Part shown: in pieces, positions 40,619 to 54,306 of the stretch
How positions within the stretch are numbered: the stretch's first letter is position 1
How the letters are laid out: every line of letters begins with the position of its first letter
Assembly (NCBI GenBank): GCA_963676565.1
Contig: OY781089.1
Coordinates: 2,560,001 to 2,624,000, forward strand
Reading direction: 5' to 3'
DNA: 64,000 bases
DNA from: Halarcobacter sp.
Lineage (GTDB): Bacteria; Campylobacterota; Campylobacteria; Campylobacterales; Arcobacteraceae
Notes under the pieces: generated by a model
Database searches by the model: none
What the model was told of the DNA's origin: nothing
What the model saw: the letters and a program-made list of their open reading frames with translations, nothing else
Position numbers and translations under genes: made by a program

Positions 40619-40957
40619 ATGGATTTTAACTTATTAACAAATGAAGATATTATAAAAGAACTTGGTAAAAACTATGAAGAGTTAAGACTTCAAAAAAGAC
40701 TTTCTGATGATGATGTTCATAAAAAAGGTGGTGTTAGTATTGATGCCATCCAAAGACTAAAAAATGGTTCTAATATAAACTTATTAAATTTTATAAAGAT
40801 TTTAAGAGGACTTGGAGAGTTAGACAAGCTTCAAAAACTACTTGAAGTAAAAGAGGAGTTTAGTATTCAAGAAAAAGTAAAAAACACTAAACCCAAAAGA
40901 ATATTCAAATCTAAAAAAGATACCAATAGTGACTTTATTTGGGGAGAAGATAAATGA
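40619..40957 (+). CDS. XRE/HTH antitoxin (HipB-like)
   Basis: HTH RLQKRLS....KKGGVS..AIQRL.NG; stop overlaps the hipA start. Confidence 0.8.
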   Translation: MDFNLLTNEDIIKELGKNYEELRLQKRLSDDDVHKKGGVSIDAIQRLKNGSNINLLNFIKILRGLGELDKLQKLLEVKEEFSIQEKVKNTKPKRIFKSKKDTNSDFIWGEDK

Positions 40958-42273
40958 GTAAAATAGTTGAAGTAAAATTATGGGGTACAACTATTGGATA
41001 TCTTGGTTACCCAAAAGATTCAAATATAGCGCAATTTGAGTATGACAAAAACTTTATGAAATCTAATATTTCACCCTCACCTTTACTGATGAATTATCCA
41101 CCTGACAAGTTTTATTTTGAAGATATTAGTTTTAGAACTTTTAAAGGAGTAGCTGGAGTTTTTGCGGATTCTTTGCCAGATAAATATGGGAATCAACTAA
41201 TCGATCAATTTATGGCAGAGAAAAAAATCCCCAAAGAAGATATAACAACTCTAGATAGATTATTATATGTGGGGAAAAGAAGTATTGGAGCTTTGGAATA
41301 TCATCCTTGTGAATTTGAAGATGATTTTGAAAAAAGTGCAAAAGCTTTAGATATATCTTTATTGTCTCAACTAGCTGAATTAGTAATTACAAAAAAAGAC
41401 AAACTAAATGATAAATTAAAAGATTCAAAAACAAAAAAAGAGGCACTTGATTTGATTAGAGTTGGTTCTAGCGCAGGAGGAGCAAGGGCAAAAGCACTTA
41501 TTGCAAAAGATGAAGATAAAAAGAATATATATATTGATGGAACAAACTTATATGAAGGGAACTATTCTTATTGGCTTTTAAAATTTGATTCATCTGCAAA
41601 TCAAGATAGGGATTCAAAAGACCCAAAAGGGATGACTAGAGTTGAATATATCTATTCCTTGTTTGCTAAAGAGTGTGAGATAGATATTCCTGAAACCTCA
41701 TATTTAGAAATAGATGATGATTTTCATTTTATGATAAAAAGATTTGATAGAGTTGTAGAAAATAAAAAAACCTCAAAACTACACTATATATCTTGGGCTG
41801 GACTATCTCATTATGATAGAGATACAACAGGGGCATACTCATACGAACAACTAATCTTAAACTTACGTCAACTAAACTTTGGACAAGAAGAGATTACAGA
41901 AATTTTTAAAAGAGCTGTTTTTAATATAGTAGGAAGAAACCAAGATGACCACACAAAAAACTTTGGATTTTTGATGAATAAAAAAGGAGAATGGAGTTTA
42001 TCCCCTGCTTTTGATATGACCTACTCTTTTGACCCATCTGGGACTTGGACGAAAGTTCATCAAATAAGATTAAATAAAAAGCAAGATAATTTTACAAAAG
42101 AAGATATTATTGCATTTGGGAAATATTGTAATCTAACTCAAATACAATCAACAAAAATCCTTGAAAAAACTATTGGGATATTTAAAAAATTTGAAAAACT
42201 TGCAGATGAATATAAGGTACCAATAAAAGTGAAAGATATCATCTCTAAAAATTTGAGAAGAGATTTAATTTAG
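40954..42273 (+). CDS. hipA: HipA-family serine/threonine kinase toxin
   Basis: HipA N-terminal FADSLPD.YG, SAGGARAK, KRFDR, NQDDHTKNF, LSPAFD. Confidence 0.9.
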   Translation: MSKIVEVKLWGTTIGYLGYPKDSNIAQFEYDKNFMKSNISPSPLLMNYPPDKFYFEDISFRTFKGVAGVFADSLPDKYGNQLIDQFMAEKKIPKEDITTLDRLLYVGKRSIGALEYHPCEFEDDFEKSAKALDISLLSQLAELVITKKDKLNDKLKDSKTKKEALDLIRVGSSAGGARAKALIAKDEDKKNIYIDGTNLYEGNYSYWLLKFDSSANQDRDSKDPKGMTRVEYIYSLFAKECEIDIPETSYLEIDDDFHFMIKRFDRVVENKKTSKLHYISWAGLSHYDRDTTGAYSYEQLILNLRQLNFGQEEITEIFKRAVFNIVGRNQDDHTKNFGFLMNKKGEWSLSPAFDMTYSFDPSGTWTKVHQIRLNKKQDNFTKEDIIAFGKYCNLTQIQSTKILEKTIGIFKKFEKLADEYKVPIKVKDIISKNLRRDLI

Positions 42274-42870
42274 TACCTTATTTATATTAGATAAAGAAGC
42301 AACCTCTCCTGGCATTAGACTATCAATATGAATCTCACCAATTCTAATTCGAACAAGTCTTAATGTAGGGAATCCAACAGCAGCAGTCATTTTTCGAATC
42401 TGACGTTTCTTTCCTTCACAAATCGTAATAGATATCCAACTAGTAGGTCCATGTTTTGGATGACGAATATTTTTTCCTCGAGGTGGTAAATCTGGCTCAC
42501 CATCAATTGCAAATGCTTTACAAGGAAGAGTTAAATATTTGCTCCCACTTACAGTAATTTCAACACCCTTTTGGAGATTAGAAATTGCATCCTCTGTAAT
42601 CACACCATCAACTTGCACATAGTACTCTTTTTCTATACTTTTATTTCTAACTTTATGACTTGTCATACCATCAGTTGTAAGTAATAATAAACCTTCTGAG
42701 TCATGGTCTAACCTTCCAATAGCCATAGTATCCTCAGGAAAATCATAAAAGTCACCTAATAAGCTTTTATTTTTCATTTTTTCTTGCTTGAATTGACTTA
42801 AACACCCATATGGTTTAAATATTTTAAAGTGCTGGTGAGTTTGTTCTGATGTAGAGTTTTCATTTGGCAT
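42265..42870 (-). CDS. Pseudouridine synthase, RsuA/RluE family
   Basis: KPYG.LSQF, GRLDHDSEGLLLLTTDG, EGKKRQIRKMTAAVGFPTLRLVR. Confidence 0.88.
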   Translation of the reverse strand: MPNENSTSEQTHQHFKIFKPYGCLSQFKQEKMKNKSLLGDFYDFPEDTMAIGRLDHDSEGLLLLTTDGMTSHKVRNKSIEKEYYVQVDGVITEDAISNLQKGVEITVSGSKYLTLPCKAFAIDGEPDLPPRGKNIRHPKHGPTSWISITICEGKKRQIRKMTAAVGFPTLRLVRIRIGEIHIDSLMPGEVASLSNINKVLN

Positions 42871-42926
42871 TAAAGATATCCTTTAGATTATGTGGAATTG
42901 TAACTTTTATTTTATAAAGTTGCGAT

Positions 42927-44207
42927 TTAATCTTTAATATCTTTTTTGTATACCTTTCCATTGAATTTTAATATAGATTTTTGGTTCGTTGTTATTACTT
43001 TAGCATCACATTCCCCATTCTTATTAACTTCATTTTTGGTTTCTGTAACCTTGCTTTTTATCAAAATATTAAAAAAGCCATTTGATTTTTGGTTTGACAT
43101 AATTAAAGTGTTTTTAGTATCTGTAAATTCACCAGAACAGTTACCGTTCCATTCACCAATGGCGTTCATCACGGAGTATTTATCAAGAATTTTTTTTAGT
43201 CTGTTGCCTGATTTGATAAAAAGAGACAAGGTTTCGCTTGTATAAGGATTAACTCTTGACATTCCCTGATAGCGTACTTTAACACCAAAAGCTCGAATCT
43301 TTTTATTAATAAAGTATCGCGCTGTATCTATACTGATTTTTCTAAGCATTATGGCATCTGAAACCCATTGGTTCGTTTGACTGCTTTCAAAGAATTTTTG
43401 TATTATTTTTCCAGTACGATTATCGGCAATAACAATATGACTGTTGAGGGCAAAATATTGTATTCCCTCTTCTACAATCTCTGGTATAACTATAATCACT
43501 TCATTTGGAGTTTGAGGGTTGGCTTTTGATACAATCAAATCTGTTTTTACTAATAACGGATCAAGACCTAATTCTTTTAAAACAGATAAAACTAATGTGA
43601 AATTTGATAAGGTGTCATTTAGTCTCTTTGAATTTGTCCTGTCAATCGTACCATCAAAATTAATAACAAATTCCTGTACTTCTATTTTTTTGACCAAATC
43701 CCAAGAAGTATGGTGGCTTGTGATAGCACGTTCACTTATTCTTGATTTTATTTGAGTCAGACCTTCAGCTATCTCGTCATAGACAATCCGCTGATAATCA
43801 ATAACATTGCCTTTTAAATCATAGTTTATCAAGGTAGATTCCATTTCATATTCACCCAATTTATAGGTAACCACCACCGTATAGAAGTTTTGAGACAAAG
43901 TTACTTTGTAAGAACTCACTGCTTTATACTTAGATTTTTCTTGATAGAAATCAGGATATATAGTTTCAATCTTCAAAGCGTGACTATCAATGGATTTAAA
44001 GTCAGCAACGTCAATAAAATCATCAAAGTTTGTGGTATCAACTACTGGCAGTTTTCTCTCTTTTAGAGTATTTATCACGTCTTTAAAATCAATAGATTTC
44101 TCTACTTGTTCTATTGCACCTTCCACTTGCTTTTCATCTTGTTTTTCTTGTCCAAAAGAATAAGAGAACAACAGCGATATAAGTATAAAAATTTGCATAT
44201 GTTTCAT
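42927..44207 (-). CDS. Secreted hypothetical protein (C-terminal half resembles PA3715-like family)
   Basis: Signal peptide; SDA....I.IDTA.Y......RAFG..V......S..NPY..E.LSL, GEW...C.GEF. Confidence 0.6.
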   Translation of the reverse strand: MKHMQIFILISLLFSYSFGQEKQDEKQVEGAIEQVEKSIDFKDVINTLKERKLPVVDTTNFDDFIDVADFKSIDSHALKIETIYPDFYQEKSKYKAVSSYKVTLSQNFYTVVVTYKLGEYEMESTLINYDLKGNVIDYQRIVYDEIAEGLTQIKSRISERAITSHHTSWDLVKKIEVQEFVINFDGTIDRTNSKRLNDTLSNFTLVLSVLKELGLDPLLVKTDLIVSKANPQTPNEVIIVIPEIVEEGIQYFALNSHIVIADNRTGKIIQKFFESSQTNQWVSDAIMLRKISIDTARYFINKKIRAFGVKVRYQGMSRVNPYTSETLSLFIKSGNRLKKILDKYSVMNAIGEWNGNCSGEFTDTKNTLIMSNQKSNGFFNILIKSKVTETKNEVNKNGECDAKVITTNQKSILKFNGKVYKKDIKD

Positions 44208-44209
44208 GA

Positions 44210-44596
44210 TCAGATCCAGTCTAAAGTTTTTTCAAGAAAATAGTGTAAGAAAGCTAAAATAACTAATATTAACAACATAGAAATTCCACGTTTTAAGAAC
44301 ATATACTTAGATAAGTTACATTTTTTTTTCAGATAAAAGAGATCAAAAAGTATAAATAGTATAGCTAAAATGGCTCCTATAATACCTCCCACAAAAAACA
44401 CTCCAAAAAAAAGCATTTTGGAATAAATAAAAGATAAGAAATTTGTTTCTTCTGGCGTTGGACCTGCAATCAAGTATGAAAGTAAATACATATAGCCAAT
44501 ACCTAGAATCAAGGCAATGACTGTCCAAAGGGCATACTCTAAAATGAGTTTTCCCACTTTATTGGATTGAACAACGTTTTTTTCGTTCGTCTTCAT
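44210..44596 (-). CDS. Hypothetical membrane protein
   Basis: Three TM segments; co-oriented block. Confidence 0.65.
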   Translation of the reverse strand: MKTNEKNVVQSNKVGKLILEYALWTVIALILGIGYMYLLSYLIAGPTPEETNFLSFIYSKMLFFGVFFVGGIIGAILAILFILFDLFYLKKKCNLSKYMFLKRGISMLLILVILAFLHYFLEKTLDWI

Positions 44597-46145
44597 TGGG
44601 TATTCCTTTCATTTTGTCTAACAAGTCAGGATCGCTAAAGTCTAACTCTTGCTCAATATTGCAAATATAGATAGATGAATTTTTTTCATTACTTTCTTTT
44701 ACCCTAAAAAGGGTATTGGTTAATACCCAATGAGTATTTTTAAAAGTAATGTAGTGGTTAGCCTCGTTAAGTCCGCGATCAGGAAATGTTGTTTGAATTA
44801 AAAAGCCATTTTCTTCTGCTAATACATCAACAATTTGATTTCCACCATCTTCTGAAAAATTGGTACTTTTTAAAGCAAATCGGTATGCTCCATCTTTATT
44901 GATAAACAGTAATAACTCATCTTCTTGGTATGGAATTGAGCTTACTACTTTGTCCAAAGCATAGTCATTGTTGATATCAATGTCTCTAACAAAATAATTT
45001 TTATTGTTCAAGTAGTATGATATATCTTTACCTATAGGATTTTTCTTATTCTCTTCCACATTAAATTCATTTGCAAACAAATCATATATAATATGCATTT
45101 TGTGATTATTAAAGCTATGCGTAAACTTTTTGTCAAATTGTGGATGTTGTCCATCAAAGAGAAAAAACAAAACTGACTTTGCTTCTTTAAATTCCAAGGT
45201 ATTGATTAGATTATATCGCTGTTTTTTCTTGATATACTTTATAAATTTATCTTGAAAATAATTAACGGCATCAGCTTGCCATTTACCATTTTTTGCAATA
45301 TTAATGAGTTTTTTTTCATAGTTCTTATACTTTTCATTTGAAATCAACTCAAAAAAATAAGCAATATAAGCATTGCTTTCATTGTAAAGTTTGCTGGGGG
45401 AATCGTTGTACTCATTCCATCCAAAATAACTTACAAATTCTTGAAAACTATCAGGAAAGAGATTTAGAAAAAGTACCTCATTTTTTGTGGAGAACGCCAG
45501 CTTTATTTGAGCTATAGAAATACTGTTATCTAGCGGTTCTTCAACATCAGAAATTAAATCATTGTTATTGAACTTGCGATTGGGTTTATTAATCAAATTT
45601 CCCTCATTGAAGAAACTAAACTTTCCACACTCTAAAGTGACATTGACTTTACAGTTAGAATAATCAAATTCTGCCAACTTATACTTACTATACATACCTA
45701 ATTCTTCAGTGACCAAGCCACCTAGATCTTCTTCGTTTTCTAAAAAATATGCTGTACCTTCATCTTGAAAAACACTAAAAGGAAAAGCCTTAGAATACTT
45801 ATAAAATAAAATTGAATCTTCTTTTTGATAAGCTAGTTTCTTGCCTGTTGAAAACCCTTTTTTCAAGTGTTCTGTTACTTTTTCCCTAATTACTTGATGA
45901 AGAATACTCTGATCCTTTTCAGGATACTTTACTAAATAAAGATTAGGATAGACCTCGGATTGTATAAACATCATATTCTTAAAAAAGAAGTGGTTAATAA
46001 TCTGTACAGTAAGACCAATAACAAATAAAGCCAAAGCCACTCGTGACCTTTCTTTATTTTGTAAAATCCACTTTATTAATCTAATGGCAAAAAATAGTAA
46101 GCCAATACTCAATAGAAGAAACAAAATGATGAGGATTATTTCCAT
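44559..46145 (-). CDS. Membrane-anchored hypothetical protein
   Basis: Two N-terminal TM helices, large soluble domain with a DINND (FG-GAP/EF-like) motif. Confidence 0.65.
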   Translation of the reverse strand: MEIILIILFLLLSIGLLFFAIRLIKWILQNKERSRVALALFVIGLTVQIINHFFFKNMMFIQSEVYPNLYLVKYPEKDQSILHQVIREKVTEHLKKGFSTGKKLAYQKEDSILFYKYSKAFPFSVFQDEGTAYFLENEEDLGGLVTEELGMYSKYKLAEFDYSNCKVNVTLECGKFSFFNEGNLINKPNRKFNNNDLISDVEEPLDNSISIAQIKLAFSTKNEVLFLNLFPDSFQEFVSYFGWNEYNDSPSKLYNESNAYIAYFFELISNEKYKNYEKKLINIAKNGKWQADAVNYFQDKFIKYIKKKQRYNLINTLEFKEAKSVLFFLFDGQHPQFDKKFTHSFNNHKMHIIYDLFANEFNVEENKKNPIGKDISYYLNNKNYFVRDIDINNDYALDKVVSSIPYQEDELLLFINKDGAYRFALKSTNFSEDGGNQIVDVLAEENGFLIQTTFPDRGLNEANHYITFKNTHWVLTNTLFRVKESNEKNSSIYICNIEQELDFSDPDLLDKMKGIPNEDERKKRCSIQ

Positions 46146-46179
46146 GAAGTTACATCCTTAGGGCACTGCAATCAATAAG

Positions 46180-46563
46180 CTAATACCATTTAGTCAAATA
46201 CTTGATACGAGCATTTGTCATTTCAATTTCGCACTCAAGTCTGGCTTCATTGCGTTGCATACCCCCACTTTGAAGTACATAAAATGCATCACAATTTTTT
46301 TTCTTGAATTCAAGCCAGCTACGTTGGCTAATAATCAAGCTTTGTTTCAATTCATTAGCATCAACTAAGGCTGCATCGGGTAATTTTCCCGTGTTTATGC
46401 TACTCATAATAGCTTTATAAATACGATTCAATTCAGCATCAGATGACTCTTGTTCAAGCTGTAGCTCACATAAAGAAGTAGGCAGACCACAACGTTCATC
46501 AATATCTTGTGCAAACAATTGGAAAGTCGTACAATAAAAAAATAGAACCAAGAACCTAATCAT
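46180..46563 (-). CDS. Lysozyme-inhibitor LprI (DUF1311)-like secreted protein; first gene after attC remnant
   Basis: Signal peptide; D.ELN..YK, L..SQRSWL.F....C, C...MT..R. Confidence 0.75.
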   Translation of the reverse strand: MIRFLVLFFYCTTFQLFAQDIDERCGLPTSLCELQLEQESSDAELNRIYKAIMSSINTGKLPDAALVDANELKQSLIISQRSWLEFKKKNCDAFYVLQSGGMQRNEARLECEIEMTNARIKYLTKWY

Positions 46564-46585
46564 TTAACTTTCCTTTTATTAAAAT

Positions 46586-46626
46586 ATATAACGTTTAAGT
46601 TGAAAAACATTTAGTAATAGTTAATA
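46586..46626 (-). mobile_element. Degenerate attC remnant (cassette 6)
   Basis: Minus strand TATTAAC..ttttcaacttAAAC-GTTATAT shares the AAAC-GTT right end with attC1/2/5 but has no central stem. Confidence 0.5.
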
Positions 46627-46636
46627 ATAAATATTT

Positions 46637-47050
46637 TTATTTAACTCCACATTTACTATCAAGTATTTTAGCTAAACTATCTCTTTTTTTATCTGCTTTC
46701 ATCAGTCTTTGATACTCTGATTCATCATTATTCTTTTTAGCTTCAACTTTTGCCATAAAAGATTGATACGAATATAATGAATCATACATAAATAATTTTC
46801 CATCGATTTTATCTATCTCTTTTGCTGCACATTTACAATATTCTAATTCTTTTTCATTTTTGGCTTGTTTTTCACAAGTGATTTTAAACATCTGTTTTGA
46901 TTTTTTAATTTGCCCACTTTTTAGCATCTGTTCATACATCTCTTGATTTGCTTTAACTTGATAAAACTCTTCAATATTCATAGATAAAATATTGTTAGCA
47001 AAACATTGTAATGATAAAAAAGATATAAGAATTAAATATTTGATGCCCAT
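46637..47050 (-). CDS. Gene cassette 6: secreted hypothetical protein
   Basis: Signal peptide, C..YCKC motif; lies between attC5 and the attC remnant. Confidence 0.7.
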   Translation of the reverse strand: MGIKYLILISFLSLQCFANNILSMNIEEFYQVKANQEMYEQMLKSGQIKKSKQMFKITCEKQAKNEKELEYCKCAAKEIDKIDGKLFMYDSLYSYQSFMAKVEAKKNNDESEYQRLMKADKKRDSLAKILDSKCGVK

Positions 47051-47219
47051 TCATTTCCTTTTATTTTTTAGTTTATTTAACAATCATAGTATCTTTTTGA
47101 GACTTAAATAATACTCTTCAAAATAAAGCTTGTAAATATATTAAATAATTATTAATATTACTCCAAAATGAAGTTAATTAAAATCATTTTCTGCAATAAT
47201 TTTAAACTATTCTTTTGTA

Positions 47220-47278
47220 GTTTAACGTTTGAAATAAGCCAATAAATTTCCCGCATGGTAATTTATTGGCTGTTATAT
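47220..47278 (-). mobile_element. attC5 (blaOXA cassette), apparently internally deleted
   Basis: ATATAAC-AGCCAATAAATTACC-atgcg-GGAAATTTATTGGCT-tatttcaaac-GTTAAAC. R'' contains the bla stop and is complementary to the cassette start GTTATAT. Confidence 0.8.
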
Positions 47279-48028
47279 AATATTCTTAAATTTTAAAGCT
47301 TCCATTACAATTTGTTTTCTATATTTTAACTCTTCTTTTTTAATATCAGCATTTAAGGCAAAAAACCAAATGTTATTTTTAGTTTCAACATATCCTACAT
47401 ACCATCCTATTTTACCTGACCATCCTGATTTGGCTTTTATTATATAATCTTTTGTTTTTTCAACAGTTAATATTTTTTTTGTAATATCGATATATTTTTG
47501 TTGAAAGGGTAAATCATCTTTATATAATTTTTTGAGAAACTCTATTTGTTCAACTGCTGATATTTGTAGATCACCTTCTAGCCAAAAAGTAGATACATCT
47601 AAACCAGTTTTTTCATTACCGTAATCTATTTTTTTTAACCAATCTAAATATTTTTCATTTCCTATTTTTTTTGCAAATCTTTGATAACACCAAACGCATG
47701 ACATTGCAATAGCACTTTGTAAAGTTTGATCTTTATTCCATGGTTCATAAAATCTTTTTTTACCATCCCACTTAATAATTTCATATTCGTCTTTTATCAC
47801 TCTTTCTTCTAAAACAATAAGTGTATTTGGTATTTTAAAAGTTGATGCTGGAATATATCTTTTTATGGCTCTTGTATCGTTATGTATAAACTCTTCATTA
47901 TTTAGTGATGACAAAACAATTGTTCCATTGATTTTTGTTTTTTTAAAAATGTTTTCTAACTCTTTATCTTGTGCTAGTGCAAAATTGAACAAAATGTTTA
48001 TCAGTATAATTATTTTTACATTGTTCAT
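47273..48028 (-). CDS. blaOXA: Gene cassette 5: class D beta-lactamase (OXA family)
   Basis: PASTFK, SCV, YGN, FWLEG, KSG motifs; signal peptide from MNNVK; RBS AAGGGG right after GTTATAT. Confidence 0.93.
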   Translation of the reverse strand: MNNVKIIILINILFNFALAQDKELENIFKKTKINGTIVLSSLNNEEFIHNDTRAIKRYIPASTFKIPNTLIVLEERVIKDEYEIIKWDGKKRFYEPWNKDQTLQSAIAMSCVWCYQRFAKKIGNEKYLDWLKKIDYGNEKTGLDVSTFWLEGDLQISAVEQIEFLKKLYKDDLPFQQKYIDITKKILTVEKTKDYIIKAKSGWSGKIGWYVGYVETKNNIWFFALNADIKKEELKYRKQIVMEALKFKNII

Positions 48029-48040
48029 TTTTCCCCTTTT

Positions 48041-48166
48041 ATATAACGCCCAGTTAAGGGGTGAAGCACGCAATGACCAAGCCTCTGCATAGCACATCAA
48101 CATCGAAATCCAACGCATAGCAAAAATGCCACGCGTGCTGAATCCCTCTTGAACTGTTTGTTATGG
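48041..48166 (-). mobile_element. attC4, long Vibrio-superintegron-type repeat (126 bp)
   Basis: CCATAAC-AAACAGTTCAAGAGGGATTCAGCACGCGTGGC..GCGTGCTTCACCCCTTAACTGGGC-GTTATAT. R'' is complementary to the cassette start GTTATGG. Confidence 0.9.
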
Positions 48167-48643
48167 CGCTCCACTCAACGTTAGCTCTTGTATATCAACT
48201 TGGTCTACTTCCCTGCCTAATATTAGCTTGTACTCGACTAAACGATGAACTGGGATAACTGGCAACTCGATACCTTGATAATCTTTAATAACTGATTCTG
48301 AGAAGTAAATTTCAAGCTGGTGCCAAGAGCCATCTTGACATGATTGTATCTTAGTATGTTCAGACAAACCGATTTCAATTTTTTGATTTTGGTAAACCAA
48401 TTGGAAATACTCTAGATCCCAACCATATTCGGCATAATGAGTTAACGGTTTGGATATGTATTTTGCTACATGCGATAGCACTTTGTCTGCGTCTGAGTTT
48501 CGAATATAAAGATCTATATCTGCGATTTCCCGACTTCCACCATGAATAGTTGCCGCTAATCCACCTACTATTTGATACTCCACAACCTCTGCATCTAAGA
48601 TCTCTTTGAGCCACTGCAAGGCTACTTTAACTTTATCACTCAT
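48161..48643 (-). CDS. Gene cassette 4: Pol-beta-like nucleotidyltransferase family protein
   Basis: GGLAA..HG..R..ADIDL motif; stop codon inside R''; more GC-rich than host genes. Confidence 0.75.
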   Translation of the reverse strand: MSDKVKVALQWLKEILDAEVVEYQIVGGLAATIHGGSREIADIDLYIRNSDADKVLSHVAKYISKPLTHYAEYGWDLEYFQLVYQNQKIEIGLSEHTKIQSCQDGSWHQLEIYFSESVIKDYQGIELPVIPVHRLVEYKLILGREVDQVDIQELTLSGAP

Positions 48644-48673
48644 CTAGTTCCTTTAGCTGAATTTTGCCTTGCG

Positions 48674-48733
48674 CCATAACGCCCCACACATGGGCGCAGC
48701 TTTGCTGCGTCCTTGTGCTGTGGCTTGTTAAGG
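48674..48733 (-). mobile_element. attC3, short GC-rich 59-be-type site (60 bp)
   Basis: CCTTAAC-AAGCC-ACAGCACAAGGACGCAGC-aaa-GCTGCGCCCATGTGTGGGGC-GTTATGG. R'' is complementary to the cassette start GTTAAGG. Confidence 0.88.
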
Positions 48734-49069
48734 GTGCGCATCAGGTTTTGCAACAACCTTAAGACGATTTGTTTTAACCCAAACACCTGCATCCTCCTCT
48801 TTGCCACCATATATAATTTGAGAGAATCCATCATACTCACTGTAAATACCTACTCCATCTTTTGGAATTATAAATTTCCCTTTAATCGAGCATGATTCGT
48901 GCGGTGCTGAATAAAATTGTGCTCGCCCTTCACCAACAACTTCACCCATCCATACCCTGTGCCAGTATTTGGCTTTTGCTTTAACATCCAGAGCTTTGCA
49001 ATCTATGTCTTCATTGCTATAGGCATTAAAAGATAAAACTAATGTGAAAAGCGTAATGATCATTCTCAT
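48728..49069 (-). CDS. Gene cassette 3: secreted hypothetical protein (SH3-like)
   Basis: Signal peptide; FYSAP...C....FII..D....Y..Y..F..I.Y.....WV...RL; stop in R''. Confidence 0.7.
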   Translation of the reverse strand: MRMIITLFTLVLSFNAYSNEDIDCKALDVKAKAKYWHRVWMGEVVGEGRAQFYSAPHESCSIKGKFIIPKDGVGIYSEYDGFSQIIYGGKEEDAGVWVKTNRLKVVAKPDAHP

Positions 49070-49076
49070 GCTAAAC

Positions 49077-49146
49077 CCTTAACGTTTGAGTCGAGAAATA
49101 TTTGAGCCGCTAAGGTCAAATATTTCTCTCCAATGATTTGTTATAT
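49077..49146 (-). mobile_element. attC2, host-type (70 bp)
   Basis: ATATAAC-AAATC-ATTGGAGAGAAATATTTGACC-ttagcg-GCTCAAATATTTCTCGACTCAAAC-GTTAAGG. Confidence 0.85.
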
Positions 49147-49550
49147 ACTAGTTTACTATTAATAATTTGGATTATTCCTTCAACATTATCCTTAAGTATA
49201 ATAGCTCGTTCAATAAATAAAGATACATCAGAATCAATTATATTTTCATCATCAATTAAAGTATTTTCAATTAGACCGGAAAAGTATGAGTGTATTTCAT
49301 GTATTAAACAATTTCTTTGATCTTTTAACATATTTAAAGCAGGAACAACATTCTTCAATGAATCATGTTTTTTTAATTTAAATATTAATCCACCTAATGT
49401 GCTTTCAATAAACTGTGAATTTTCATTATTTTCATCAAGAAATTTTTTAATTAAGCTTTCTAATTTTCCAGTAATTAAAATGACACGACCAAGTTCCATA
49501 CAAAATCTATCATTAGTATATAAAAGATTATAAAAATGTTTATTACTCAT
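49116..49550 (-). CDS. Gene cassette 2: hypothetical protein with HEPN-like RxxxxH motif
   Basis: TLGGLI..RNCLIH; the ORF reads into attC2 (..YNKSLERNI*); AGGAG RBS after GTTATGC. Confidence 0.68.
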   Translation of the reverse strand: MSNKHFYNLLYTNDRFCMELGRVILITGKLESLIKKFLDENNENSQFIESTLGGLIFKLKKHDSLKNVVPALNMLKDQRNCLIHEIHSYFSGLIENTLIDDENIIDSDVSLFIERAIILKDNVEGIIQIINSKLVYNKSLERNI

Positions 49551-49563
49551 TCAAACTCCTTAT

Positions 49564-49634
49564 GCATAACGTTTAAGGAGAGCAATATTTGACACAAGGG
49601 CGGGTCAAATATTGGTTCCTACGTTTTGTTAGTC
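49564..49634 (-). mobile_element. attC1, host-type (71 bp)
   Basis: GACTAAC-AAAAC-GTAGGAAC-CAATATTTGAC-ccgcccttgt-GTCAAATATTG-CTCTCCTTAAAC-GTTATGC. R'' contains the stop and is complementary to GTTAGTC at 50125-50119. Confidence 0.88.
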
Positions 49635-50105
49635 ATTTAGTTGACTCGCTGATTCTTCTATCGTCTTGATAGGGTCTTCCATAAATTTACAGGCTTTTGA
49701 AACTTTTAAATCTTCAATTATCTCAGATAAGTTTGGTTGTAGAACTTTACTAGACTCTTCAGCATATAACAAACACTTTTCTTCATCTGCTATTGTAATG
49801 AAATTTTCCAAAATTTTTATATTGTCTTGTGCTGGAGAAAATTTAAGAACAACAGCTTCAAATTTTTCATCTGTTTTATAAATCTGTATTTGAGAACCCC
49901 AGTTATCGTCTGATTTAAATTCTTCAACATCACCCCAACTATTATTAATTGGTAATAAAGAACGTATTGAATTCATGAAATTTGTTGAGGGGTTTGAAAA
50001 CTCTTCCCAAGCAAAATAATCATCTAGCGCACTTTGAAAATCAGTTTTATGCTTTTCTACAAACTCTTTAGGAATGATTTCAATATTATATTGAAAAATT
50101 GCCAT
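49629..50105 (-). CDS. Gene cassette 1: hypothetical protein
   Basis: 158-aa ORF between GTTAGTC entry site and attC1. Confidence 0.72.
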   Translation of the reverse strand: MAIFQYNIEIIPKEFVEKHKTDFQSALDDYFAWEEFSNPSTNFMNSIRSLLPINNSWGDVEEFKSDDNWGSQIQIYKTDEKFEAVVLKFSPAQDNIKILENFITIADEEKCLLYAEESSKVLQPNLSEIIEDLKVSKACKFMEDPIKTIEESASQLND

Positions 50106-50118
50106 TATTTATCCTAGT

Positions 50119-50201
50119 GACTAACTATTTATTGAATATAAATTATATAAATAAAGTACTTAAATACACTTATTTATTATATATTTATAATAATTATATA
50201 A
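50119..50201 (-). mobile_element. attI-like entry site of the cassette array
   Basis: G^TTAGTC core preceded by a non-palindromic AT-rich tract with direct repeats (TATTTATT x2, AATTATATAA x2) instead of an attC. Confidence 0.55.
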
Positions 50202-50323
50202 AATAATATTATTAGATATATATTGTGAAGAATAAATTTATTAAAGTATACTTCCAATAACTTAAAAGAGCTTGTCACATTAGTTTGGAGTGATTACCTA
50301 ACTTTGTCATAAATAGGGGGGGG

Positions 50324-50350
50324 GTAAGGACGTTTGTCCTTACTTTTTTT
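50324..50350. terminator. Hairpin GTAAGGAC-gttt-GTCCTTAC with T-run on + strand, preceded by a G-run
   Basis: Perfect 8-bp stem; abuts the stop of the 50349..51098 gene. Confidence 0.6.
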
Positions 50351-51098
50351 ATGAGTATAATTGAATAAACTTATTTTCTTGAAACTCCATTAAAATGCAT
50401 TTTGAAACTTTTAATTTTTCTAGTAAATCTTCTGGAGATATAGGTAAACAATTAAGATTTATTTTTTTAGTAACATTCATAATATTTATAAACTTTTTAT
50501 CTGTGGTTAAAAAATAATCTAATCCGTTCACTTCTGCACTCCATAAATGAAAAGCATCAGGTAGCTGTTTATCTGATAAACCTGAACATATCTCTTTAAA
50601 TCTTTCTATATTGTTAATAGATTTTTTTGTTAAGTTGGGATAACTACTAGTATTTCTTACTAAATTCTTTATATCAGCATTATTTAAAGAAAGCAAAAAT
50701 TTACAAAAGTCAATAACATTTTTGTTATCTATAAATTCAAGAAAATCCATACTTTGAAAGTAGCTTCTATCAATCGCTGGTTCAATAAATTTAATTGAGA
50801 CATTTTTTAAAAGATATCCTCTCTCTTCTAGGAAAGTTTTTTTCCAACCTTCAAATTTAACTTCATCATAAGAGAAGAAATGTATCTTATTCTCATAAAC
50901 TAAATTTACAATTGTTGGAATACACATAATTTGATTCCTTTTCCATTGATTATTATCATCTGGTAATGGTTTTCTAACATAGCCTAAAATATCATTAGTA
51001 AGTACTTGATTACCCCATTTAAGTGTTTTTTGAGAAATTTGATACTGTAATGTTTCACTTAAACTAAAAATACAATTATCTAAAAAAACTTTTATCAA
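50349..51098 (-). CDS. Hypothetical protein, PIN-like motifs
   Basis: VFLDNCI near the N-terminus and DAFHL..AE...LDYFLTTDKKF; TTG start after GAGG. Confidence 0.62.
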   Translation of the reverse strand: MIKVFLDNCIFSLSETLQYQISQKTLKWGNQVLTNDILGYVRKPLPDDNNQWKRNQIMCIPTIVNLVYENKIHFFSYDEVKFEGWKKTFLEERGYLLKNVSIKFIEPAIDRSYFQSMDFLEFIDNKNVIDFCKFLLSLNNADIKNLVRNTSSYPNLTKKSINNIERFKEICSGLSDKQLPDAFHLWSAEVNGLDYFLTTDKKFINIMNVTKKINLNCLPISPEDLLEKLKVSKCILMEFQENKFIQLYS

Positions 51099-51136
51099 TT
51101 ATTGACCTCTTAAAATAGTAGTTTGATTAAAATATA

Positions 51137-51241
51137 TTTTGTCGTAAGCTTGGTGTAGATTTTACCGAAGTCTAGCGAAGGTGTACTACTCGTACATCGA
51201 AGCTAGAATTCGGTGAAAGATGCGCCGAAATTACGGCAAAA
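51137..51241 (+). repeat. 105-nt imperfect palindrome (REP/ERIC/MITE-like or structured RNA)
   Basis: TTTTGTCGTAA/TTACGGCAAAA, TTGGTGTA/TGCGCCGA, TTTTACCGAA/TTCGGTGAAA, TCTAGC/GCTAGA, GGTGTAC/GTACATC nested stems. Confidence 0.7.
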
Positions 51242-51244
51242 AAA

Positions 51245-52780
51245 TTATTCCCACTCGATTGTTGCTGGTGGCTTAGAAGAGATATCATATACCACTCTAT
51301 TAATCCCATCAACTTCGTTAATAATTCTTCTAGAAATAGTTTCTAATACATCATGAGGGATATGTGCAAATGTAGCTGTCATACCATCTGTTGCTTCTAC
51401 AATTCTAACACATACAGTATTGTCATAAGTTCTATTATCACCCATAACACCAACTGATTTTACATTTAGAAGTACTGTAAATGCTTGCCATGTTTTATCA
51501 TATAATCCAGTTGCATGTAAAACATCTAGCATGATAACATCTGCTTTTCTAAGTAATTCTAAATCAGGTTTATTAACATCTCCCATCACTCTAATAGCAA
51601 GTCCAGGACCAGGGAAAGGATGTCTACCAATCATATCTTTTGGAAGTCCAAGTTCAAGTCCTAAAAGTCTTACTTCATCTTTGAAGATTTCTCTTAAAGG
51701 TTCAATTAACTCAAAAGTCATCCAATCTGGAAGTCCACCAACATTGTGATGTGACTTGATAGTTTTAGAAGGTCCTTTAACTGAAACAGACTCAATAACA
51801 TCTGTATAAAGTGTACCTTGTGCTAAGAACTCAATACCATCGTGTTTTTTTGCTTCTTTATCAAATACTTCAATAAAAGTTTCACCGATAATTTTTCTTT
51901 TTCTTTCAGGATCAGTTACTCCAGCTAATCTTTCAAGGAATAGTTCACTTGCATCAGCAGTAATAAGATTCACACCTCTTGCTTTAAACATAGCTTCAAC
52001 TTGTTCTCTTTCATTTGCTCTTAATAAACCATTATCAACAAATACAGGAATAAGTTGGTCTCCAATAGCTTCAGCTAAAAGTGTTGCAACAACAGAAGAG
52101 TCAACTCCTCCACTTACACCACATAATACTTTTTTATCTCCAACTTGGTCTTGGATTTTTTTGATTTGTTCTTTTGCAAATGAACCCATGTTCCATGTTG
52201 ATTCACAACCACAAACATGTTTTGCAAAGTTTTTAAGAATCTTAGCACCTTCAGCTGAGTGATAAACTTCTGGGTGAAATTGAAATGCATAAATATTTTC
52301 ATCTTCTTTTGCAATTGCTGCAAATGGAGAGTTTTCACTTGTTCCAATAACTTCAAAACCTTCTGCTAATTTGTCAACTTTATCTCCATGTGACATCCAA
52401 ACAGTTTGTCCATCAGTTGTGTCTTTGAAAATCGCACACTCTTTTTCAAAAGTAAGTTTTGCTTTCCCGTATTCATGATGATCTGCAGGGATTACTGAAC
52501 CACCATAAAATTGAGAGATAAGTTGCATACCATAACAAATACCCAAGATTGGAAGTCCAAGATTAAAAATCTCTTCATCAGGGTGATATGCATCTTGTGC
52601 ATATACTGAAGCAGGTCCACCACTTAAAATAATACCTTTTGGAGTTCTAGCTAAAATATCTTCGATTCTTTCACTATATGGTACAATCTCAGAGTAAACA
52701 CCAGCTTCTCTTAATTTTCTTGCGATAATTTGTGTATATTGACTACCAAAATCTAATACAACTATTGGTACATGTTTCAT
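51245..52780 (-). CDS. guaA: GMP synthase (glutamine-hydrolysing)
   Basis: [41 protein letters not shown]. Confidence 0.97.
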
Positions 52781-52877
52781 TAAATAGATTCCTTATTTTC
52801 TAATTAGTATCCGCGATTATAACTAAAGAGTAATTTAATATTGATTAATAGAAAAATAAGTGAGTAAAAGAAGAGAA

Positions 52878-52904
52878 TGTAAAAGTGCAAAAAGCACTTT
52901 TACA
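52878..52904 (-). terminator. Terminator after nhaD
   Basis: TGTAAAAGTGC-aaaaa-GCACTTTTACA. Confidence 0.65.
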
Positions 52905-52911
52905 AATAAGA

Positions 52912-54306
52912 TTATCCTACGTGATAAAATCCTAAGATTTCGTATTGAACATACCAAATAGTAACAGAAGCAATATATCCAATAAGGATAGTCCATGCAT
53001 ATTTCATATGTGAACCAAATGTATAAATACCATGAAGTTTACCCATAACTCCAACACCTGCTGCTGAACCAAATGAGATCAATGAACCACCAACACCCGC
53101 TGTAAGTGTTACTAACATCCATTGGTCAAGACCCATTTCAGGAGATGCTTTAAGTACTGCTGACATAACAGGAACGTTATCAACGATTGCAGATAAGAAA
53201 CCAACACCAATATTTGACCAAGTTGGTCCTAATACTGATGGGTCATAAACTACAACTGCTAATGCTAACCATCCAATAAAGTATAATGCACCAACTGCAG
53301 CTAAAATACCAAAGAAGAACATTAATGTATTATTTTCAATTTTTGCCATTGAATGGAAGATATTAAAGTGGTCTTTACCATGTTTTCTTTTTAAACCATA
53401 AGAATAAACTTTAAGTAAAGAAAGACCAAACATCATACCCCACATAGCTGGTAAATGTAATACTTGGTGAGACATAACAGCACAGAAAATTGTGAATACA
53501 CCAAGTCCCATTACTACTTTTGCACCCTCTGCCATTTGTGGTTTAAGCTCTTTTGATGCATCAAAATCAGGTTTTGTTTCTGGAACAAATTTAGAAAGGA
53601 TAAATGCAGTAATTAAATATCCACCAATAGAAGATGGGAATAAAAATAAGAAATCAGTAAATGTACCCTTACCTGCAGTCCAAGCCATAAGTGTAGTAAT
53701 ATCTCCAAATGGTGACCAAGCACCACCTGCATTTGCTGCAACAACAATATTAATTGCACCAGGTACTAAGAAGTCTTTTCTTGTTTTTTCAATTGTTATT
53801 AATACAGTTGATAAAATAAGAGCAGTTGTTAAGTTATCTGCAATTGGAGAGATAAAGAATGCCAAAATACCAGTTACCCAGAAAAGTTTTCTATATGTAT
53901 AACCCTTTGAAACTAGATTATATTTTAAGCTATCAAATACTCCCATATGGATTAATGACTCAATATAAGTCATAGCAACAAATAAGAAGAAGAAAATTCC
54001 AGCAATTTCTAAAATCAAGTGTTGCGCTTCAGTGTGCACCAACCCTAAATCTAGACCATTTAACGCATAATATAGCGCAACTAGAATAAACATAAACGTA
54101 CCAATAAATAGTGCAGGCTTTGCCTTATCAATTTCGTACTTCTCCTCAGCAGCTACGAAATAGTAACCTACCACAAAAATAAATAGACAAGCGAATCCTA
54201 CCCAAGTCATAGTTAAATCAGGTGCAACTTCTGCCGTACCAGAAGCTCCACTCGCTGCTAACAGCGATAAAGATGATAAAAATAACATCATCAACAGTTT
54301 TAACAT
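52912..54306 (-). CDS. nhaD: Na+/H+ antiporter NhaD
   Basis: KAKPAL, SPIADNLTT, ANAGGAWSPFGDITTLM, SAIVDNVP, GSAAGV. Confidence 0.92.
   Translation of the reverse strand: MLKLLMMLFLSSLSLLAASGASGTAEVAPDLTMTWVGFACLFIFVVGYYFVAAEEKYEIDKAKPALFIGTFMFILVALYYALNGLDLGLVHTEAQHLILEIAGIFFFLFVAMTYIESLIHMGVFDSLKYNLVSKGYTYRKLFWVTGILAFFISPIADNLTTALILSTVLITIEKTRKDFLVPGAINIVVAANAGGAWSPFGDITTLMAWTAGKGTFTDFLFLFPSSIGGYLITAFILSKFVPETKPDFDASKELKPQMAEGAKVVMGLGVFTIFCAVMSHQVLHLPAMWGMMFGLSLLKVYSYGLKRKHGKDHFNIFHSMAKIENNTLMFFFGILAAVGALYFIGWLALAVVVYDPSVLGPTWSNIGVGFLSAIVDNVPVMSAVLKASPEMGLDQWMLVTLTAGVGGSLISFGSAAGVGVMGKLHGIYTFGSHMKYAWTILIGYIASVTIWYVQYEILGFYHVG

Follow-up and report, generated by a model that had tools for sequence, protein, structure and literature searches.

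The stretch of DNA analysed here, 64,000 nucleotides from Halarcobacter sp. (GenBank assembly GCA_963676565.1, contig OY781089.1, positions 2,560,001 to 2,624,000 of the forward strand; hereafter the window), carries on its minus strand, between 46.1 and 50.2 kb, a region which is very probably the cassette array of a chromosomal integron together with its attI site, the integrase gene (intI) being absent, and which qualifies as a CALIN (attC sites in a cluster that has no integron integrase). The array lies between two conserved genes, one of which we take from its translation to be guaA and the other, presumably, a pseudouridine synthase gene. An earlier reading of the letters alone, referred to below as the original prediction, had proposed an array without integrase beside guaA, which would be either served in trans by an integrase IntI encoded elsewhere or a relic. 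Our results better support the relic, as an IntI acting in trans from within the genome was not found.

In this interval seven co-oriented open reading frames (ORFs) are present, and between them lie five well-formed imperfect palindromes with AAC/GTT cores, as well as one remnant (Table 1). The five cassettes with GTT cores and attC sites that had been described are all recovered at the same positions, with two corrections regarding the ORFs: with attC-derived boundaries their number is seven and not six, and for the one listed at 47273-48118 the most likely start is 48028. On the minus strand every cassette opens with GTTRRRY and, as had been claimed, the leading heptamer is the exact complement of the cassette's own R'' site in cassettes 1 (GTTAGTC/GACTAAC), 3, 4 and 5 (7/7 in each), the agreement being 5/7 in cassette 2. 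A value of 5/7 is also obtained for cassette 6, which indeed ends in a remnant (46586-46626). Such complementarity is what a circular cassette recombined between the G and the TT of the core would leave behind. The GTTRRRY constraint leaves four free two-choice positions, corresponding to about 1/16 per cassette, and the chance of four exact matches in five cassettes amounts to ~1e-4 by our own estimate, which was not computed by a tool. Moreover, when folded as single-stranded DNA, attC1, attC2, attC3 and attC5 yield z values of −6.8, −5.0, −3.8 and −5.0, respectively, and none of 200 shuffles folds as well. In the minimum free energy folds of attC1, attC2 and attC3 the bottom strand has 1, 1 and 3 additional nt, respectively, on its 3' arm, an arm of which attC5 lacks 10 nt, and the R box is not always paired.

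The attC sites were also analysed with a surrogate covariance model, R1, which derives from 19 attC sites found in seven congeners and does not include the window sequence. The source repeats form a homogeneous 69-71-nt family in congener arrays beside genuine integron integrases, and the structure of R box, L box and stem was written by hand. In the R1 alignment 86.1% of the cells pair, against 76.3% in shuffles (0 of 500 as high), and four stem pairs are altered on both sides; the alignment comprises two sub-classes offset by one column, some of the cells counted as unpaired being alignment artefacts. Over the 64-kb window, with filters off, the model matches attC2 (80.5 bits, E 3e-16), attC1 (50 bits, E 5e-9) and attC5 (32 bits, E 1e-4) on the minus strand, so that, with this surrogate, a covariance-model check of the kind which the original prediction had suggested gives three minus-strand matches at E ≤ 1e-4, all within the array. 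Beyond these and weaker plus-strand echoes of attC1 and attC2 (20 and 23.6 bits), nothing in the 64 kb falls under E 0.01; the attC6 remnant scores 11.5 bits (E 7.6). Indeed, attC2 is 89-95% identical to attC sites in congener arrays, and R1-type sites are found in 19 of the 25 genus genomes.

Rule-based scans of the 64 kb identified three sites under strict settings, all of them in the array, and seven under loose settings, three of them in the array. Over 42000-53000 Rfam gave no matches at E ≤ 0.1. A whole-genome rule-based scan with an arm prefilter proved insensitive, as it missed attC1 and returned 15 mostly isolated hairpins, and it was dropped for the R1 search. Likewise, RNAalifold on a mixed alignment of 26 sites gave no consensus structure, MAFFT having misaligned the arms of the long and short classes, and a new alignment was made from the 19 short sites.

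At the head of the array, the region 50119-50187 is a putative attI site. Its 65-bp element (50122-50187), directly upstream of cassette 1, is found again in many genomes of the genus. The window, the intI upstream regions of nine congener loci and two further loci were aligned (12 sequences), and in 12 of 12 the common motif starts exactly at the AAC of the crossover core, while the cassette side is unrelated in all of them. In the nine congener intI loci the motif lies ~255-300 bp upstream of the intI start codon, and it is this conservation from the crossover core onwards, together with the place upstream of intI, which leads us to read the region as attI. The similarity of the window to the sequence upstream of congener intI ends after ~65-70 bp, beyond which the sequence is common to G086, the nearest relative (93% nucleotide identity). 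This suggests that a replacement removed intI along with the proximal part of the intergenic region.

The absence of an integrase from the 64 kb, as noted in the original prediction, extends to the whole assembly. In the complete one-contig genome of 3.34 Mb the best match to the integron-integrase model TIGR02249 reaches 50.4 bits, where the cut-off is 265, and the window contains no match; in agreement, a tblastn search of the whole genome with congener IntI returned only generic recombinases, at 24% identity, and no intI remnant. The same model is above its cut-off in 44 of the 184 species genomes of the family and in 7 of the 25 genus genomes, with clear fragments in 5 more. We have compared the locus across the genus, by mapping 12.5 kb of the window on 24 congeners and by tblastn. 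In G096, G101, G093 and G087 an intact intI (~400 bits with TIGR02249) is separated by 150-220 bp from the guaA 3' end and is convergent with guaA and divergent from the cassettes; a decayed intI occupies the same position in G094, G105 and G099, and a stub of the intI upstream region stands beside guaA in G104. Overall, intI, its remains or attI are found beside guaA in all of these congeners and in the studied genome, and G106 has an attI-like remnant at this place. With the same chromosomal location across the genus and homogeneous attC sites, the system would rank as a sedentary chromosomal integron. The guaA gene itself is conserved at 91-97% amino acid identity in the 10 congener loci matched by tblastn, and the pseudouridine synthase gene is conserved in its vicinity in many congeners, ~1 to 14 kb or more away.

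Where congeners have intI, the window has on the other strand a 249-aa ORF which, among the 24 congeners, is common only to G086 (91% amino acid identity). It has no match in the family libraries or in PADLOC, and the protein atlas gave hypothetical proteins only. Of the two origins considered in the original prediction, the relic is favoured because no IntI exists in the complete genome and because congeners have intI or its pseudogene at the same guaA junction.

That the cassettes behave as discrete units is seen in cassettes 4 and 5. The protein of cassette 4 shares 97% identity with a 'MazG-related'/nucleotidyltransferase protein from Vibrio parahaemolyticus, and the named ones among its 179 homologues are nearly all from Vibrio and other marine Gammaproteobacteria. 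At the DNA level the cassette aligns with metagenome contig L043 at 94.6% identity over 644 bp, the homology spanning 48041-48684, from core to core and no further, and the metagenome contigs which carry it have flanks of the same 120-odd-nt attC family. Judged by sequence, cassette 4 is a Vibrio-type cassette. Its G+C content is 0.41, and that of cassette 3 is 0.39, against 0.285 for the window.

Cassette 5 is predicted to encode a class D (OXA-type) beta-lactamase, as its ORF matches the curated class D model NF012161 with 275.6 bits (cut-off 250) and its translation contains STFK, YGN and KSG, which we take to be the class D catalytic motifs. The protein does not reach the cut-off of any named OXA family in NCBIfam, the best being OXA-198-like (250.6 bits, cut-off 515), and its best relatives in the PDB are OXA-48-like enzymes, the closest of which, 9h16, is about half identical by eye in the alignment. 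No other such gene is found in the genome (tblastn, E 1e-5). In the metagenome-assembled genome (MAG) of Arcobacter sp. BM102 a relative of the gene (91% amino acid identity) has an R1-type attC directly downstream and a second attC directly upstream, and an R1-type attC also directly follows the relatives from Arcobacter sp. 15-2 and from a MAG of Sulfurovum sp. (78%); a Poseidonibacter record with a relative of this gene showed no R1 attC. In G093 a copy with 92% identity is flanked by attC sites on both sides, at another locus on a different contig, so that, as in BM102, the OXA gene is found as a unit bounded by attC sites.

The protein of cassette 1, which has no match in Pfam, NCBIfam or PADLOC, has a homologue of 92% amino acid identity in the decayed array of G105; that of cassette 3, whose N-terminus resembles a signal peptide by eye, has one distant homologue only (55%); and homologues of the cassette 6 ORF occur elsewhere in G093 (95% nucleotide identity) and G087. 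In the distal block (42927-46591) no attC was detected; this block is absent from G086 and is partly syntenic at another place in G087, at 92-95% nucleotide identity. PADLOC returned for the cassette proteins nothing but two weak matches (E 8e-4 and 1e-2) on the PA3715-family ORF, which were discounted.

Table 1. Features of the cassette array and its flanks, in window coordinates.
Feature	Position	Strand	Length	Description
Pseudouridine-synthase-like gene (presumed; rluE in the original prediction)	42265-42870	-		conserved left flank
Distal variable block	42927-46591	-	3.6 kb	four ORFs
PA3715-family ORF	42927-44207	-		distal block; family match
128-aa ORF	44210-44596	-	128 aa	distal block
528-aa ORF	44559-46145	-	528 aa	distal block
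LprI-family ORF (cassette 7, LprI-like)	46180-46563	-		distal block; family match
attC6 remnant	46586-46626	-	41 nt	only L'-R' side left
Cassette 6	46592-47225	-		ORF 46637-47050 (137 aa), no family; ends in attC remnant
attC5	47220-47278	-	59 nt	AAC...GTT cores; deletion variant
Cassette 5	47226-48046	-		predicted class D (OXA-type) beta-lactamase ORF 47273-48028 (251 aa); attC5
attC4	48041-48166	-	126 nt	AAC...GTT cores
Cassette 4	48047-48679	-	633 bp	ORF 48161-48643 (160 aa), nucleotidyltransferase-fold 'MazG-related'; attC4
attC3	48674-48733	-	60 nt	G+C-rich; AAC...GTT cores
Cassette 3	48680-49082	-		ORF 48728-49069 (113 aa); attC3
attC2	49077-49146	-	70 nt	AAC...GTT cores
Cassette 2	49083-49569	-		ORF 49116-49550 (144 aa), no family; attC2
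attC1	49564-49634	-	71 nt	AAC...GTT cores
Cassette 1	49570-50124	-		ORF 49629-50105 (158 aa), no family; attC1
attI-like site (putative)	50119-50187	-		crossover core GTTAGTC at 50119-50125; conserved 65-bp element 50122-50187
249-aa ORF	50349-51098	-	249 aa	no family
guaA (presumed)	51245-52780	-		conserved right flank

A cassette order invariant across relatives had been named as a sign against an integron, and the opposite is observed, as cassette content varies across relatives and samples. The comparison of the interval from guaA to the pseudouridine synthase gene, also proposed beforehand, shows it to vary in both length and content, from ~30 bp plus the 249-aa ORF in G086, which lacks window 42921-50197, up to more than 14 kb across the genus, with intI or its remains at the junction in congeners. 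None of the 24 congeners has the cassette order of the studied genome, and none has cassettes 2, 3 or 4. In a salt-marsh metagenome (run X3) a 71-kb contig is collinear with the whole 11-kb stretch at ~98% identity.

A further run, X7, has little or no cover over cassette 1 and the 249-aa ORF, and a contig of 3,636 bases from it aligns to 48136-49147 by its first 1,010 letters only. This pattern may reflect other proximal cassettes in that sample, the missing cover itself not being evidence. Contig joints in the same run (47271>50122 and 49106>50122) lead from the interior of attC5 or attC2 to where the attI-like element starts, skipping 2850 and 1015 bases; their short sides, of 28 and 21 letters, lie within repeats.

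These results are best explained by the following history. In an ancestor of this Arcobacter-like genus an integron would have been located between guaA and the pseudouridine synthase gene, with intI directed toward guaA and with attI and the cassettes extending away from it. IntI would have inserted circular cassettes between the G and the TT of attI and excised cassettes between attC sites, giving rise to a mosaic array of native AT-rich cassettes with the 69-71-nt attC family, the one with the class D beta-lactamase gene included, and at least one capture from a Vibrio-type superintegron. In the common ancestor of the studied genome and G086, intI and ~220 bp of its upstream region would then have been replaced by the unrelated 249-aa ORF. 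Without a resident integrase, the array would have become an essentially frozen, slowly decaying CALIN led by attI. Its decay is indicated by the deletion in attC5, which lacks 10 bases just after R'' in an alignment with homologous cassette copies, by the attC6 remnant and by the distal block without attC.

A number of observations weigh against this interpretation. The folding check held for four of the attC sites, but attC4 (z −0.2) folds no better than shuffles by energy, and the same is true of the attC6 remnant (z −0.3). Also, attC3 and attC4 are unmatched by the family-specific R1, which we ascribe to their belonging to other, G+C-richer attC classes. With both sites outside R1 and attC4 folding no better than shuffles, their status rests on the core sites, on the heptamer complementarity and, for cassette 4, on the homology to foreign arrays. 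The 65-bp attI-like element is not confined to array heads, since the studied genome has 3 copies of it and several copies lie inside the arrays of G087, G101 and G104, so that the attI reading of the element is not exclusive. Concerning the integrase, an intI borne on a plasmid may have gone unassembled in this one-contig assembly. Lastly, a 489-base contig of run X2, without any difference over 48676-49143, continues at 48042 and thereby joins cassette 3 to cassette 5. The 633 bases left out correspond exactly to cassette 4, and both ends have 9 letters, GGGCGTTAT, in common. The short side of this joint has 21 letters (less than 30 being flagged as weak), but these are unique in sequence and the length fits to the single base. 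The contig argues against a long-frozen array, within the limits set by the 21 letters and by the 9-nt repeat, which also permits a slippage deletion; the form without cassette 4 would result either from IntI recombination or from slippage between the 9-nt repeats.

The lack of a significant fold in attC4 and in the remnant would agree with the palindromes being ordinary intergenic repeats or terminators, similar to repetitive extragenic palindromic (REP) elements, whose likeness to an integron is coincidental, and so would the uninformative scans for sigma-70 promoters (31 sites, 30.4 expected) and for terminators (1, 1.7 expected). However, the same repeat family is found in congener arrays directly beside intI genes well above the TIGR02249 cut-off (~400 bits versus 265), recombination by IntI specifically predicts both the complementary heptamers and a homology of cassette 4 from core to core, and no Rfam family is matched, so that we regard this explanation as in effect refuted. 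A rather unlikely possibility, which is compatible with the relic, is that the array still gains and loses cassettes through an IntI acting in trans, provided by an unassembled plasmid, an incoming mobile integron or DNA of a co-resident relative. The X2 contig skipping exactly cassette 4 points in this direction, and so do the divergence of only ~5% between cassette 4 and its Vibrio-type copies and the presence of the 249-aa ORF in place of intI in a relative that is already 7% diverged (G086); supply in trans is raised for CALINs in general in the part of Cury et al. (bioRxiv 10.1101/030866) consulted here. Against it, no IntI was found in the complete genome, the X2 joint is weak on one side, replication slippage gives the same product, and both attC5 and attC6 are damaged.

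It is, in addition, conceivable but quite improbable that another species of the genus donated the array as a whole, the conserved guaA and pseudouridine synthase flanks serving for homologous recombination, after the replacement of intI and with no cassette capture in the lineage itself. Campylobacterota are often naturally transformable, single cassettes occur at 92-95% nucleotide identity elsewhere in other species (cassette 1 in G105, cassettes 5 and 6 in G093, the LprI block in G087), and the nearest relative, G086, has an empty site with the same 249-aa ORF, all of which would suit such an import. Yet no donor with this cassette order, or with cassettes 2, 3 or 4, is found among the 24 congeners, and the junction between attI and the 249-aa ORF would need to be recreated.

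Returning to the reading as a relic, the expression of the array may be considered. The cassette leaders are short, as exemplified by the 14 bases preceding the start codon of the OXA gene, and there is no room in them for promoters of their own. For this reason the cassettes would be transcribed either from the AT-rich attI region or by read-through from the co-oriented guaA and 249-aa ORF; the sigma-70 scan allows no promoter to be named.

The two additional copies of the attI-like element in the studied genome have other neighbours. One of them leads a second integrase-less array (C1:160737-164401), which comprises four minus-strand attC sites of the R1 type (E from 1.5e-8 to 2.7e-5), ORFs of HNH-, ABM- and transglutaminase-like types and an LprI-like ORF at its far end. 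The third copy, at C1:2659039-2659332, has nearly the whole intI upstream region as found in G088 and G096, but instead of intI it runs directly into radA, with a DUF5677 gene on the cassette side. The flanking genes of these two copies, radA and an RNase-T-like gene, are beside intI in none of the congener loci examined. In G087 and G101, a near-identical segment lies inside the arrays (L033 7300-8600 and L036 13500-14800), in which an attI-like element with ~200 bp of the sequence upstream of intI precedes the same two cassettes, of 130 and 81 aa, which suggests a recent exchange of array segments including attI.

Some features of the flanks are also worth recording. The gap between guaA and the 249-aa ORF (51137-51241) contains a near-perfect hairpin of ~105 nt (−25.7 kcal/mol, z −7.0) with no Rfam match, and G101 has a similar 100-nt hairpin between intI and guaA (L019 18670-18769); the hairpin of the window may be a guaA terminator or a repeat element. 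Just 3' of the 249-aa ORF, between it and attI, a G-run, a perfect 8-bp hairpin and a T-run (50318-50347) read as a plus-strand terminator, which is absent from the list of the consensus scan. Upstream of the pseudouridine synthase gene, two overlapping plus-strand ORFs of 112 and 439 aa (40619-42273) resemble by eye a HipB/HipA-type toxin-antitoxin pair.

In comparison with known systems, the array is like the CALINs defined with IntegronFinder (Cury et al. 2016) in having at least two nearby attC sites, some of them degenerate, co-oriented promoterless cassettes, mostly of genes of unknown function, and no intI. In the part of that work consulted (bioRxiv 10.1101/030866), intI loss is discussed as one origin of CALINs and recognisable intI pseudogenes lie near only 15 of 279 CALINs; whereas there the origin is traced through such pseudogenes, here no intI remnant is left and the origin is traceable through attI and the position in congeners. 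The same text describes resistance genes as rare in CALINs, unlike the array studied here, which carries one, and gives as its criterion for a sedentary integron more than 19 attC sites or a frequency of 100% in the species.

With the Vibrio superintegrons and their VCR/VPR-type attC sites the system shares a fixed chromosomal location in the genus, an attC family that is homogeneous and specific to the host, and numerous cassettes of unknown function, and cassette 4 with its 126-nt attC is by sequence of the Vibrio type. It differs from them in its Campylobacterota host, in its native AT-rich attC sites of 69-71 nt, in its short arrays of 4-7 cassettes split over several loci and in that the integrase is lost in the studied genome and in 18 of 25 genus representatives. 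The recombination logic and a beta-lactamase gene as a cassette are found likewise in the mobile resistance integrons of classes 1-5, but the present array lacks intI, a transposon context and a 3' conserved segment, and the beta-lactamase belongs to no named NCBIfam OXA family. As to OXA-48-like and OXA-198-like enzymes, the product of cassette 5 gives a full-length match to the class D fold; it differs in having only about half identity to 9h16.

The original prediction also held that integrons are little described in Campylobacterota. In genomes they are not rare, as the IntI counts for the family indicate, and in the parts of the sources consulted the phylum is listed among those with integrons (PMC8618304) and IntegronFinder CALIN and In0 calls are tabulated for Sulfurovum and Sulfurimonas (PMC10295459, Table 1). 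For Arcobacter the integron reports, as far as the consulted part of PMC13689115 goes, concern class 1 integrons, and no description of chromosomal integrons in Arcobacter or Arcobacteraceae was found in the literature, although supplementary tables, for example of IntegronFinder, may list some. CALINs as a kind are already known, and what deserves to be retained here is the traceable in-place loss of intI with attI kept, the cassette shared with Vibrio and the OXA-type cassette lineage in Campylobacterota.

A wider picture can be drawn, which we put forward as doubtful, in which Arcobacteraceae possess a large, essentially undescribed chromosomal integron system, with IntI in about a quarter of the species, cross-phylum cassette trade with Vibrio superintegrons and an OXA cassette lineage of their own. 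In this picture arrays may gain and lose cassettes after the loss of the integrase, and the attI module may be copied to several loci and to array interiors, as an extra landing pad or an internal promoter. The exact presence or absence of cassette 4 among near-identical strains points to cassette turnover after integrase loss.

Altogether, the locus offers a CALIN whose origin, as is rarely the case, can be traced, namely to a chromosomal integron, widespread in the genus, which would have lost intI in place and kept attI, in a family, the Arcobacteraceae, in whose genomes integrons are common (44 of 184 species). Marine and estuarine Arcobacter-like bacteria draw on the same cassette pool as Vibrio, across phyla, and within Campylobacterota (Arcobacter and Sulfurovum) a cassette with a predicted class D beta-lactamase is in circulation, which bears on environmental reservoirs of resistance genes.

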